32,000 nt of DNA from assembly GCA_031316235.1 (NCBI GenBank), contig JALDRA010000001.1, forward strand, positions 720,001 through 752,000, given 5' to 3'. Position numbers and translations under genes: made by a program. Below the pieces are notes generated by a model, which had not been told where the DNA came from, ran no database searches, and was given only the letters and a program-made list of their open reading frames with translations. The stretch comes from Candidatus Scalindua sp. (lineage in GTDB: Bacteria > Planctomycetota > Brocadiia > Brocadiales > Scalinduaceae). Position 1 is the stretch's first letter. Each line of letters starts with the position of its first letter. Shown piece after piece: positions 789 to 30,528 of the stretch.

Positions 789-957
789 TATACTAAAACC
801 GATTTGGTTTTCGGTTTTACCCGTCCGAACGGCTGACAGGCCGGGCAGGCCGGAAACCAAATCTTGGTGAAGGTATCCCCGGACAAAAAGCGCCGAGGAC
901 TTTACTCGCTCAAATTTATCTCGGATTTTATCCGAAATCCAGTATGAGATGAGTATA
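789..957 (-). repeat. family A intergenic hairpin repeat, copy 1 (long form plus 30-nt GC-rich insertion, 169 bp)
   Basis: Aligns end to end with the other copies (TATACTCATCTCATACTGGATTTCGGATAAAATCCGAG...GGTTTTAGTATA). It has an extra CCTGCCCGGCCTGTCAGCCGTTCGGACGGG in the loop of the right hairpin. It lies 77 nt downstream of the stop at 1035. Confidence 0.9.
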
Positions 958-1034
958 ACAAGGGAAATGCTGCTATAGCTACAATTCTTCCTGATCTTGA
1001 TACCACGTTATTACCCTCCCACCTGTTTCCTCAT

Positions 1035-2276
1035 TCACTGAGTCTGATAAGTATAATCCACATATTTCCATGTACCGCTCTTAAACCACAACCTGACATA
1101 AAGATTCTGTCCATTCAGGGGTATTCCTGATACTGTTGCTGATGTATTGAGATACTGGTTTTGACTATAAACATCTCCATATGGTGTCCTATCGAGTGAT
1201 TCATACGTTGTCCCAACTGCCAGCCAGTACTGAGTTACATTGGTACCTGGGCTCCACTCAAAGGCAACAGTTCCCGTTGTCAAGGTTGAGTCTGATGCCG
1301 GATTCATAATCACTGGCGGGTTTAAAACAACTTGAGGCCATGTTCCTGAAAGTTCATATGTGTCAGTTGTGTCATGAACACCGTTGACACCAAACGCTTT
1401 TATCAGATACGTTCCTGAAACAGTGGCATCATATGTGATAGTCTCTGTCTGGCAACCATCAAAGGTTGAAGAATCAAGTTTCACACCATTTGCATCATAA
1501 AGCTCTAGATTATAATTCAGACATGGGGTTTGAGGTGGTTTCATATTGAGCGTGATAGTTCCGGCACTTCCTACCTCTATCTTAAACCAGTCTTCATCCG
1601 TACTATTACATATCTTAGCATTATACGAATTTCCTGATTTAATGAATCCATAGGCTTGAGAAGAATTGTCATTCGGTTCATAAGAGTCGGTACATCCCTC
1701 AGTCTGGTAGGTATAGTCTACATGTATCCACTTTTCACCATCTTTATACCATAGTCGTACAAAGAGCGTATTCCCGTTTAATGGTATATTGGGCACGGTG
1801 GCAGATGTTGATATACCCTGGTTACGGCTGTAAACATCTCCGTATGGGGTATTATCAAGCAAAGCAAGGCTTGTCCCAATTGACAACCAATATTGACTAA
1901 CGCCACTGTCTGCGCTCCACTCAAAGGTAGAGGTAGATGTTGCTATTGGAGCTTCTTTTGTTGGACTTGTCATCTCTGGCGGCTTTACAGCACTTTCCGG
2001 CCATGTCCCGGAAAGCGCATAAGTTTCACTTGTGTGAAATTGACCACCGAAGCTATAGATCTTAATAAAATATATGCCTGGTGATGCACTGTACGTAATA
2101 TTCTCACTATTGCATGTTTCAAAGTTGGAATGGTCAACTTCTACATTATTTGAATCATAAAGCACAATGTCATAATTCTGACATGAACTTTGCGGAGGCT
2201 CTAATTCTAGAGTGATATTCCCTGGGCCACCTACTTCTATCTCATACCAGTCTTCATCTGTTGCACTACATATCAT
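1035..2276 (-). pseudogene. 3' portion of the IS-interrupted secreted S8 protease gene (PPC domains alternating with a ~95-aa FEW..YWL..VRLW..DYTYQT domain)
   Basis: Two pre-peptidase C-terminal (PPC)-like segments (YEPND..QAY..DEDWFKIEV..TITL). Two copies of a conserved unnamed domain. The ORF begins mid-domain (MICSATDEDWYEIEV). It joins in frame to 4736-6899 once the IS is removed. Confidence 0.85.
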
Positions 2277-2290
2277 CGCATTGTAAATAG

Positions 2291-28720: not shown

Positions 28721-28819
28721 TATTGTATGGCCACCTGTCGCCTTATCTGGTCAGCCGACAGCACTGCGGTCAGCTGCAGGATGATAGGATTCTCCGCTGC
28801 AACAGCCAGCTGGTCTGCC

Positions 28820-30286
28820 TCATGCCTCTCCAGTCAGATCGTCAAGCGAAATGCCCAGAACATCAGCCATACCCTTTCCATAAGCAGGATCGGCTTTCAT
28901 GCAGTTGCCGATATGACGGATCTTAATCTCCAGGGGAGCGTCTCCCATGGCACTGGCGGTATTGGCAAAGAGCGCTTGCTGCTGTTCCGGACTCATCAGC
29001 CGGAAAAGTAATCCTGGCTGGGTGTAGTAATCATCGTCATCACGATGATTCCAATGATCGGCAGCCCCGTCCAGACTCAGAGCCGGTTCTGAAAACTCAG
29101 GCTGCTGCTGCCACTCACCGCAGCTGTTAGGCTCATACCCGGGCGTTCTGCCATAATTGCCGTCGATCCGCATGGCTCCATCGCGGTGGTAACTGTGGAA
29201 GGGGCAGCGCGATGCGTTCACCGGAATCAAGTGGTGGTTTACACCAAGCCGGTAACGCTGTGCGTCTCCGTACGAGAACAGACGTCCCTGTAACATCTTA
29301 TCCGGTGAAAAACCAATACCAGGTACAATGTTGGCCGGATTGAAGGCTGACTGTTCAACTTCAGCAAAATAGTTTTCTGGGTTGCGGTTCAGTTCCATAA
29401 TACCGACGTCAATCAACGGGCAGTCCCTGTGGAGCCAGACCTTTGTAAGGTCGAACGGATTGTAAGGGAGGTTGACAGCATCCTTTTCCGCCATTATCTG
29501 GATGGAAAGCCTCCACTTTGGAAATTCTCCCCCCTCAATGCTCTCGAAAAGGTCACGCTGGTGGCTTTCCCGGCACTTGCCTATGATGGCCTCAGCCTCA
29601 GCATCTGTGAGGTTCTTGATGCCCTGCTGACTTCTCCAATGAAACTTGACCCAGTGCCGTACATTCTGGGAGTTGATAAGGCTGAAGGTGTGGCTGCCAA
29701 AACCGTGCATGTGGCGATAGGAGGAAGGAATGCCGCGGTCGCTCATGGTTATGGTGATCTGGTGCAGCGCCTCCGGCAGTGATGTCCAGAAGTCCCAGTT
29801 ATTGCGGGCACTTCGAAGGTTTGTGCGTGGATCACGCTTCACCGCGTGATTAAGGTCGGGGAACTTGAGAGGATCTCGCAGGAAAAAGACGGGCGTGTTA
29901 TTACCCACCAGGTCCCAGTTACCCTCTTCAGTGTAAAATTTGATGGCAAAGCCACGGATATCGCGCTCCGCGTCTGCTGCTCCACGTTCACCTGCCACCG
30001 TTGAAAAACGGGTGAAAAGTTCAGTCTTCTTTCCAATCTCAGAGAAAATCTTTGCCCTGGTGTAGCGGGTAATGTCGTGAGTAACAGTGAATGTTCCATA
30101 GGCCCCGGATCCCTTGGCATGCATACGCCTCTCGGGAATGACTTCTCGATCAAAGTGGGCAAGTTTCTCAAGGAACCATGCATCTTGCAGCAGCTGAGGA
30201 CCGCGAGGTCCCGCAGTTATTACATTTTGATTGTCAGGTACGGGAGCACCGGCATTGGTTGTCAGCTTCTTTTTTTGGTCTTTCAT
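28820..30286 (-). CDS. katA: monofunctional heme catalase (small-subunit type, 488 aa)
   Basis: AAAGGAG RBS before the ATG at 30286 ([16 protein letters not shown]). Motifs [32 protein letters not shown] and [14 protein letters not shown]. Confidence 0.95.
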
Positions 30287-30389
30287 GGTTACTTCTCCTT
30301 TCATGTTTGATTGTGTGCGGCTGACATTAAGGACACTGCGGCAGGGAAAACAGGCTGCTTCTCTCTTTTTCAAAATATCGCGAGATGTT

Positions 30390-30528
30390 TATAGTCATCC
30401 CATAATGGTTTTCGGATAAAATCCGAGATAAAATTGAGCGAGTAAAGTCCCCGGCGCTTTTTGTCCGGGGGTACCTTCACCAGGATTTGGTTTCCGGTAA
30501 AACCGAAAATCAAATCGGTTTTAGTATA
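30390..30528 (+). repeat. family A repeat, copy 9 (long form, 139 bp)
   Basis: Full alignment. It lies 103 nt upstream of the catalase start. Confidence 0.9.

Follow-up and report, generated by a model that had tools for sequence, protein, structure and literature searches.

The repeats called family A, found throughout the intergenic DNA of the 32,000-nt stretch analysed here (the window; Candidatus Scalindua sp., GCA_031316235.1, contig JALDRA010000001.1, positions 720,001-752,000, forward strand), are very probably copies of a non-autonomous DNA transposon (MITE) specific to Candidatus Scalindua / Scalinduaceae. Family A is a repeat family with sharp termini, related ends and a duplicated TA target; it is restricted to this host group, in which related IS630 elements occur. 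The preliminary description had proposed a MITE-type element, and this reading is borne out by the sharp termini, unrelated flanks, shared end architecture and TA duplication. The copies are small (under ~500 bp), non-coding and dispersed; they end in inverted repeats, and comparison with empty sites shows that the TA has been duplicated. The sequences suggest that family A is probably moved by an IS630/mariner-type transposase; the identity of the mobilising enzyme, current activity and the origin of the optional hairpin modules are things that we infer. Insertion at TA and a probable transposase of this type would make family A an ordinary kind of selfish element.

Copies, ends and modules of family A

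An nhmmer profile trained on nine near-full copies (112-169 bp) re-found all of them, with E-values of 1e-31 to 1e-48, so that each of these copies was recovered where it had been described, with a chance expectation of none. Allowing up to 3 mismatches, the right-hairpin 33-mer matched 8 times and the left-hairpin 21-mer 11 times in the window, and every shuffle gave 0 matches. The longest copy, 789-957 (minus strand, 169 bp, nhmmer E 3.4e-46, supported by alignments), carries modules M and R, lies in a spacer between convergent genes and directly adjoins a MITE-like repeat of another family, B, at 614-785. The central 27-nt module M is missing, as claimed, from exactly three copies, all on the plus strand: 10721-10833 (113 bp, TAACTGCAACC subtype, in a divergent spacer), 20316-20427 (112 bp) and 21719-21830 (112 bp, with an HD-domain gene 64 nt downstream). 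Module M is present at 14075-14214 (plus, 140 bp), 20610-20747 (plus, 138 bp, left terminus mutated to CATGCT), 23787-23925 (minus, 139 bp), 28582-28720 (plus, 139 bp, between the catalase stop and P-II start codons) and 30390-30528 (plus, 139 bp, upstream of the catalase gene).

Weaker profile matches correspond to a degraded 114-bp copy with intact termini and a diverged interior (24645-24758, plus, E 5.9e-10), to a solo left unit covering model positions 1-55 (28125-28178, plus), in whose hairpin a G:C pair has changed to A:T in a compensated manner, and to parts of two palindromic derivatives without assigned strand. The derivative at 19590-19645 (matched at 19607-19645) is built from two left ends, one of them inverted, and is mutated at its outer left terminus, and the 52-bp mini-element at 25980-26031 (matched at 25981-26024) has the same composition with both termini TATACTCATCTTATACTGG. 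A third derivative, 12754-12800, also without assigned strand, has two right-end termini (TATACTAAAACCGATTTGGTTTTAGTATA); it was recovered by its terminal-repeat pattern and not by the profile. Its palindrome, which runs 9 nt into the flanks between convergent genes, looks terminator-like. The supposed scrap at 18531-18565 had to be dropped, as a match of ~14 nt is below significance. The statement that the family occupies almost every spacer was slightly overstated: in a manual tally of the ORF list, ~14 of the ~18 spacers longer than 90 nt carry it. The local density reaches one copy per 2.5 kb, and the family is unusually dense here.

Sharp termini, TATACTCATC...GGTTTTAGTATA, and unrelated flanking DNA characterise 53 full-length copies from the window and 33 further Scalindua loci. 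The architecture TATACT-N10-TGGTTTTCGG recurs at both ends, and the two 26-nt ends are identical at 18 of 26 positions, which agrees with the earlier view of the halves as diverged inverted relatives. The element proper is TACTCATC...GGTTTTAGTA with the duplicated TA on each side, hence the observed TATACT...AGTATA. The 26-nt architecture sits within a local hairpin at each end and is a putative cleavage and transposase-binding site. The left 57 nt are a mini-palindrome in themselves (TATACTC...GAGTATA), and solo left units as well as palindromes with two left ends occur in the family. The surveyed copies are 112-227 bp long, which is too short to encode a transposase.

The modularity of family A is real and wider than first described, with four optional GC-rich hairpin modules, two of which occupy the loops of the two end hairpins. 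The 30-nt insertion R was correctly placed at the right-hairpin apex of copy 789-957. It is proposed that the 112-, 139- and 169-bp classes result from clean gain or loss of the four modules, whose combinations differ among copies and species. Modules L and R have common termini, CCTGYC...GRCRGG, and each lies immediately 5' of TAAAA in an end-hairpin loop (CGGA^TAAAATCCG and CCGG^TAAAACCG); neither of them shows a target duplication. The modules are found mostly inside family A, and a few palindromes with CCTGYC...GRCRGG termini stand alone in intergenic DNA. Simple MITE biology does not explain GC-rich modules in the loops. One doubtful proposal, to which a low probability is given, is that they represent tiny palindromic mobile elements of a class of their own, targeting the tips of DNA hairpins; if so, one parasite would be nested in another under the direction of secondary structure, possibly through a single-strand mechanism. 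Alternatively, Scalindua may have turned part of family A to regulatory use, as hairpins acting at the RNA level.

Target sites, distribution and IS630-family relatives

The TA target duplication, which had been suggested from the termini, is demonstrated by natural empty sites, since family A is nested in another repeat, family C. The filled site at L002:7587-7697 reads ccttg-TA-element-TA-cctggg, and the empty counterpart in at least five uninterrupted family C copies reads ccttgTAcctggg. A copy of the reverse orientation, L030:7515-7651, occupies the same TA. Moreover, L018:3582 and L009:5565 are filled relative to the paralogous site L020:5836-6068, so that the duplication is based on two clean nested insertions and one paralogous site. 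Orthologous empty sites were also sought through catalase orthologues, the neighbours of which were not syntenic.

In a set of 185,579 species genomes, an exact family-A 25-mer was confined to Scalindua/Scalinduaceae, and it had no match in viral contigs. The window and the 33 loci (available 8-kb stretches seeded by an exact 25-mer match, not whole genomes) hold 70 non-overlapping matches in 296 kb from four genomes, and copies occur in different contexts in at least four genomes. The similarity of copies between species (0.89-0.94) equals that within genomes (0.91-0.945), which requires that the element has been active recently in every lineage, is under constraint or has been exchanged horizontally. 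The family had not been recognised when it was first described, and no named counterpart appeared in Rfam or in the literature searched. At the gathering threshold Rfam gave no match in the whole window; at a permissive threshold the region 20200-21900 gave two sub-threshold matches, both outside the elements, and no relevant family. Literature searches on MITEs and IS630 in Scalindua or anammox bacteria yielded no description of family A.

Related IS630-family insertion sequences are present in a Scalinduaceae genome and in metagenomes, and such elements have been reported from anammox genomes (PMC7814187). One such insertion sequence of 1122 bp, L012:4690-5811 of a Scalinduaceae genome, has a family-A copy 2.6 kb away and encodes a 343-aa product with DDE_3 (E 7.9e-29) and HTH_33/29/23 domains. 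Of the 26 positions of its right end, TATACTCATTACGAAATGGTTTTAGG, 21 agree with the left end of family A; the corresponding value is 22/26 for the relatives at L036 and L041 and 23/26 for those at L090 and L091. The left ends of these insertion sequences are poor matches to family A (14-20/26). A search for autonomous elements gave none whose termini match exactly, 23/26 being the highest value; the partner of family A would be recognisable as an insertion sequence that has TATACTCATCTCATAATGGTTTTCGG-type ends and an intact ORF. A further IS630-family transposase (P0035, 326 aa) is listed on a 4,149,782-bp contig, equal in length to the one with a catalase 100% identical to that of the window. 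P0035 is the single member of its protein cluster and may be defective, to judge from its divergence after residue ~318.

Two other candidates were rejected. The inverted repeats (2285-2310 and 4712-4737) of the window's own DDE_5+DruA transposase (2368-4596) are unrelated to family A. At L013:5296-6757, two outward-facing left ends surround a 212-aa ORF (5749-6387) and another copy; by inspection this ORF resembles a carbonic anhydrase rather than a transposase.

According to the proposed mechanism, an IS630/Tc1-mariner-family transposase with N-terminal HTH domains and a catalytic DDE_3 domain would cut and paste family A in trans. Integration would take place at TA with a 2-bp stagger, the repair of which would duplicate the TA. 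For ISY100 in vitro, only ~24-30 bp of each end are needed, and TA is targeted and duplicated (PMC2170065). Selection would remove insertions into genes, so that copies persist in intergenic spacers, and this persistence would lead to passive co-transcription or a location in promoter regions in many places.

Gene context and rival explanations

The placement of the copies bears on whether family A is a host-selected cis-regulatory or structured-RNA module (a promoter donor, terminator/attenuator, small-RNA gene or site of RNase III/E processing) that has spread through intergenic DNA, as Correia or ERIC elements do in part, with mobility as a secondary property. This explanation is unlikely. 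It draws on the folding of both strands, which is far better than in shuffles (z about -6), on the mutually exclusive pairings at the right end, and on the fact that some copies must share transcripts with adjacent genes or sit in promoters. Copy 14075-14214 takes up 140 of the 179 nt separating two co-oriented minus-strand genes and ends 4 nt short of the stop codon at 14219, and left termini lie 35, 42, 45 and 50 nt from the start codons at 14039, 10678, 28536 and 28074; the earlier arithmetic was right in all these cases. The copy at 30390, which had been placed 16 nt from the catalase start, is in fact ~103 nt from it, because the catalase has 488 aa and spans 28820-30286. The derivatives 12754-12800 and 25984-26027, located between or behind genes, score as terminator-like, and hairpins are kept by double changes in 28125-28178 and in L002 (TACACT/GAGTG). 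On inspection of the alignment, pairing is kept at the right-hairpin apex of L032:5003 too; the tool did not count this as compensatory. Against this stands the 70-copy survey of the window and the 33 loci, with gene calls that are crude ORF calls. In it 64 of the 70 copies are intergenic, their distances to starts and stops are spread from -30 to 390 nt, and there is no bias in which end faces a start or a stop (Fisher p=0.26) or in orientation within co-oriented spacers (9 same, 12 opposite; p=0.66). The spacers are co-oriented in 21 cases, divergent in 13 and convergent in 10, about 2:1:1, the ratio that would be expected from random spacer hits. Covariation scored 0.041 as compared with 0.043 in shuffles, a low-power test because the copies are ~90-95% identical. 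In consensus scans the counts of promoter-like and terminator-like sites did not exceed those in shuffles; inspection of the consensus revealed no outward-facing sigma-70-like promoter at either end, the lone -10-like hexamer being the terminal TATACT, which points into the element. The absence of an Rfam match also speaks against a structured-RNA module. Therefore, the regulatory significance attached to the tight placement is not upheld. A selfish MITE is what the preliminary description had foreseen for a family without positional or orientation bias and without covariation, and this is the outcome in the available loci. The claim that no copy lies in a credible coding sequence also holds on the reading, judged from the sequence, that the sole long ORF covering a copy (23298-23954, minus strand, over 23787-23925) is the antisense shadow of a plus-strand ORF at 23321-23694; neither has a Pfam match.

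The same structures could be read by a Y1 (HUH) transposase instead of a DDE enzyme if family A were a single-strand IS200/IS605 or REP/RAYT-type element. A hairpin near each end, the GC-rich REP-like palindromes in the hairpin loops with a few standing alone, and the inversion of the right hairpin in one copy (L003:5707) are in line with such an origin, which is nevertheless very improbable: the terminal inverted repeats are symmetric, no conserved 4-5-nt target is found on one flank only, and the terminal sequences resemble IS630-family ends. The TA on both sides, duplicated relative to empty sites and used in both orientations at one position, largely refutes it. The local clustering, with 13 copies in the 32-kb window and ~24 extra copies in the 33 8-kb loci, might suggest a conserved intergenic motif that does not move, or copies arising by segmental duplication. 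This can be practically dismissed, as the flanking sequences are unrelated even next to the termini and copies are found in different contexts in several genomes; the nested insertions, which break another repeat family at a defined TA, refute it. A MITE, probably moved by a DDE transposase, is the preferred reading.

Significance and relation to known systems

As far as the searches reach, no MITE family had been characterised in anammox bacteria before family A, for which the evidence includes a duplicated target site and a candidate partner clade of IS630 type. Candidatus Scalindua is a marine anammox bacterium, and the presence or absence of single copies could mark its strains in oxygen-minimum zones. 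Logan short-read contigs that match the window (SRR28338161) stop within elements to either side of the catalase gene and, in the case of hsp20, to one side; short-read assemblies thus break at family A, a practical nuisance that probably contributes to the fragmentation of Scalindua MAGs. Given the local density, many 5' and 3' untranslated regions hold stable hairpins, and these may plausibly affect the expression of hsp20 and of the P-II, catalase and TonB-receptor genes.

Some modules, such as CCTGCCTGTGCGT...ACGCACGCAGACAGG, are short imperfect GC-rich palindromes like REP/BIME sequences. In contrast to these, the modules lie mostly within family A and no RAYT gene was seen, and the AT-rich scaffold, terminal inverted repeats and TA duplication mean that family A is not a REP. 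Membership in IS200/IS605-type or REP elements is contradicted by the inverted repeats, the TA duplication and the insertion in two orientations at one TA. Family A also resembles the Correia elements (CREE/nemis) of Neisseria, which are ~100-160 bp long, in its size range, in its discrete size classes due to an internal indel, and in being dense in intergenic regions, often co-transcribed and hairpin-forming. Correia termini, too, begin with TATA beside a duplicated TA; we take the family-A termini (TATACTCATCTC...) to be unrelated to the Correia terminal repeat, the host being Scalindua and not Neisseria. To our knowledge, no transposase has been identified for Correia elements, whereas family A has a related IS630 clade. 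Family A shows neither sequence similarity to Correia elements nor a bias pointing to promoter, IHF or RNase III roles. Promoters, an IHF site and processing by RNase III have been shown for the Correia elements (reviewed in PMC10969869). The resemblance is functional only.

With ISY100 and other IS630 insertion sequences, family A shares TA-flanked ends, and the candidate relatives (L012, L090, L091, L036, L041) have ~26-bp imperfect repeats. They contain one ORF with HTH and DDE_3 domains, whereas family A has none, and its ends are just 21-23/26 identical to their right ends. MITEs derived from IS630/Tc1-mariner elements include Stowaway of plants and RUP of Streptococcus pneumoniae, the latter linked to IS630-Spn1. 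Family A differs from these MITEs in its unrelated sequence and its anammox Planctomycetota host, and in that both of its ends resemble the right end of the insertion sequences, its left half is palindromic, and it has four optional GC-rich hairpin modules and no exact-match partner found. Like them, it is small and non-coding, with IS630-like inverted repeats, a duplicated TA and many, mostly intergenic, copies.

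Copies of family A and their modular anatomy

The hairpin repeat family A is real. At ≤3 mismatches, the window gave 8 matches to its right-hairpin 33-mer and 11 to its left-hairpin 21-mer, and shuffled sequence gave none to either. Alignment of the nine proposed near-full copies gave sharp boundaries (TATACTCATC...GGTTTTAGTATA), and an nhmmer profile built from them recovered 9/9 (E 1e-31 to 1e-48). The same profile picked up two palindromic derivatives (19607-19645 and 25981-26024), a fragment of the left unit (28125-28178) and the degraded copy at 24645-24758. A further derivative proposed at 12754-12800 fits the terminal-repeat pattern, although this pattern is the sole means of finding it, and the supposed scrap at 18531-18565 fell below significance. 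The preliminary description had placed no copy in a credible CDS, which agrees with our reading: a single long ORF, 23298-23954 on the minus strand, overlaps a copy and is apparently the antisense shadow of ORF 23321-23694 on the plus strand, the choice of the plus strand being our judgement, as neither ORF matched Pfam. The catalase of the window is 488 aa long, and its start accordingly shifts to 30286.

Both strands of the element fold far better than shuffles (z about -6). The left 57 nt of the plus strand form one long interrupted hairpin, in which TATACTC pairs with GAGTATA and CTCA with TGAG, below the apex ATTTCGGAT/ATCCGAGAT. The left half thus forms a small palindrome of its own, and this accounts for both the solitary left unit (28125-28178) and the palindromes built from two left ends (25980-26031 and 19590-19645).

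The modular anatomy proposed earlier was borne out by 49 distinct full copies, whose alignment resolved an AT-rich scaffold with four GC-rich modules that a copy may have or lack: L (33-38 nt, left-hairpin loop), M (27 nt, central hairpin), M2 (26 nt) and R (30 nt, with longer versions of 83-115 nt, right-hairpin apex). Their combinations vary between copies, and the copy at L023:1448, in an external Scalinduaceae locus (loci outside the window are numbered L), carries R but not M. Three of the nine aligned window copies cleanly lack the 27-nt module. The 30-nt insertion in copy 789-957 was confirmed by alignment, and this R module was found again in another genome (L019:3767). Modules L and R have common termini (CCTGYC...GRCRGG) and lie directly 5' of TAAAA in their respective loops, without target duplication. 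They resemble stand-alone GC-rich palindromes with CCTGYC...GRCAGG termini at L010:2189-2223, L003:1783-1819, L007:4029-4058, L028:5330-5360 and L011:7128-7174. In the copy at L003:5707-5878, whose right hairpin reads as its exact reverse complement (GGTTTTCGGTTTTACTGGAAACC), the palindrome is locally inverted. A REP-like short GC-rich palindrome (TTATTGGCAGGCAATGCCTGCCCTACTCGACT) occupies two intergenic spacers without family A (window 7346-7395 and 16165-16214).

Target-site duplication and candidate relatives

Immediately beyond their termini, family-A copies have unrelated flanks. Family C, a third repeat of ~150-160 bp (TAGTGTTTGAACGAAAAC...GTTTTCGTTCAnnCACTA), is interrupted by three of these copies, and its uninterrupted members serve as empty sites. 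The filled site L002:7587-7697 reads ccttg-TA-[element]-TA-cctggg, versus ccttgTAcctggg in five other family-C copies; the same TA is occupied at L030:7515-7651, in the opposite orientation, and at L004:857-1018. Moreover, a paralogous site that is empty (L020:5836-6068) could be aligned to the filled site L018:3582 / L009:5565. These comparisons demonstrate that family A duplicates its TA target, as its termini had suggested, and the element proper is TACTCATC...TTTAGTA. Around the target TA only a weakly AT-rich, roughly palindromic preference is seen. Family C gave 24 BLAST hits across 12 loci (L027:1124-1281, L027:6613-6761, L017:7407-7559, L013:4055-4212 and others), with a fragment at window 31334-31381. 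Its internal TA (ccttgTAcctgg) looks like an insertion hot spot, since it has received three or more family-A insertions, in both orientations.

IS630-family transposition targets and duplicates TA, and in the case of ISY100 it requires only ~24-30 bp per end, to which N-terminal HTH domains bind (PMC2170065); IS630-family insertion sequences have been reported in anammox genomes (PMC7814187). The two family-A ends have TATACT-N10-TGGTTTTCGG in common and agree with each other at 18/26 positions. A TA-flanked insertion sequence of 1122 bp (L012:4690-5811) lies 2.6 kb from a family-A copy in a Scalinduaceae genome, and its 343-aa product carries DDE_3 (E 7.9e-29) and HTH_33/29/23 domains, which assign it to the IS630 family. 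Aligned in register from the terminus, its right end (TATACTCATTACGAAATGGTTTTAGG) and the family-A left end agree at 21/26 positions; judged by sequence, this insertion sequence is a candidate autonomous relative. Related metagenomic insertion sequences reach 22/26 (L036 and L041) and 23/26 (L090 and L091; TATACTCATATCAAAATGGTTTTAGG). Both ends of a sister MITE, A2 (TATACYCATYRCGAATTGGTTTTCGG; 172-182 bp; L007:2838-3019, L033:5709-5880, L006:7763), are nearer to the IS630-family right end than those of family A are. The IS630-family transposase P0035 has an aberrant C-terminus and is listed on a contig of 4,149,782 bp, a length shared by the contig that encodes a catalase 100% identical to that of the window.

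Distribution and gene context

An exact 25-mer (TGGTTTCCGGTAAAACCGAAAACCA), searched in one genome per species across 185,579 species, was confined to MAGs of Candidatus Scalindua / Scalinduaceae (33 loci, three genomes), and it was absent from viral contigs. The contig that encodes the identical catalase is likewise labelled 'Candidatus Scalindua sp.'. With nhmmer, the window and the 33 8-kb loci (296 kb) gave 74 matches, of which 70 were non-overlapping and 53 full length; ~24 of the copies were additional ones clustered around the seed matches. Short-read contigs from Logan (SRR28338161) that encode the catalase and hsp20 of the window stop inside family-A copies, at both ends (L088) or at one (L084), which indicates that the family breaks short-read assemblies. 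Copies are as similar between Scalindua species as within one genome, and the window copies are enriched for some variants at alignment columns 16, 21 and 97. Either exchange among lineages or recent activity of conserved master copies would fit this pattern. The copies at L004:4498 and L020:6827, from two species, have identical 15-nt flanks and are apparently one orthologous insertion.

A regulatory meaning of the tight placement near start codons was not supported by a survey of 70 copies based on crude ORF calls. Sixty-four were intergenic, in spacers that were co-oriented (21), divergent (13) or convergent (10), near the 2:1:1 expected if spacers are hit at random. Distances were broad, from -30 to 383 nt to starts and from -8 to 390 nt to stops, with no orientation bias in co-oriented spacers (same 9, opposite 12; p=0.66) and no bias in the end facing a start or a stop (25/18 vs 16/20; Fisher p=0.26). 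Neither promoter-like (50 vs 45.6±7.0) nor terminator-like sites (18 vs 15.6±4.2) were enriched, and a terminator-like appearance was limited to the small palindromic derivatives. The covariation check found none (RNAalifold term -0.1; structure-pair score 0.041 vs 0.043 in shuffles, 470/500 of which reached the observed value), in a test with little power, given the 89-95% identity among copies. As proposed earlier, some copies, such as 14075-14214, must by their geometry lie within a transcript or promoter region, a position that does not in itself argue for selection.

Several other features occur in the window. Family B, a second MITE-like repeat (~170 bp; two internal hairpins; perfect 17-bp terminal inverted repeats, AGCGTTGTCCGGTTAGG...CCTAACCGGACAACGCT), is present at 614-785 and 18652-18782 and in L028, L007, L015 and L010, and one of its copies directly abuts copy 789-957. 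On the other side, this copy is reached by a 277-nt segment (956-1232) comprising the 3' part of a PPC-domain gene (1035-2276) and 79 nt beyond its stop; the segment recurs downstream of and inside a beta-helix gene (7420-7696, 94% identical; 8080-8356, 64%), which points to a gene fragment or to C-terminal domains that are shared or have been duplicated. The insertion sequence at 2285-4737 (26-nt inverted repeats at 2285-2310 and 4712-4737) encodes a 742-aa protein with an unusual combination of an N-terminal DruA-like (Druantia) / Mom-like domain and a DDE_5 transposase domain. Close upstream of copy 21719, a sub-threshold Rfam match to wcaG RNA (21644-21703; E 0.1; 23.5 bits vs gathering score 42) is probably due to chance.

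Relation to known MITE families

The MITE-type nature proposed for family A is upheld by its unrelated flanks, its TA duplication and its ends, which on sequence comparison appear related to an IS630-family clade of the same bacterial family. Literature searches found no description of it, and a review (PMC10969869) lists no MITE families in Planctomycetota. Family A is a genuine MITE family, undescribed as far as the literature was searched. It works like Stowaway, RUP and Correia-type elements, yet it belongs to no named family; its very high local density and its loop-nested GC-rich modules are somewhat notable.
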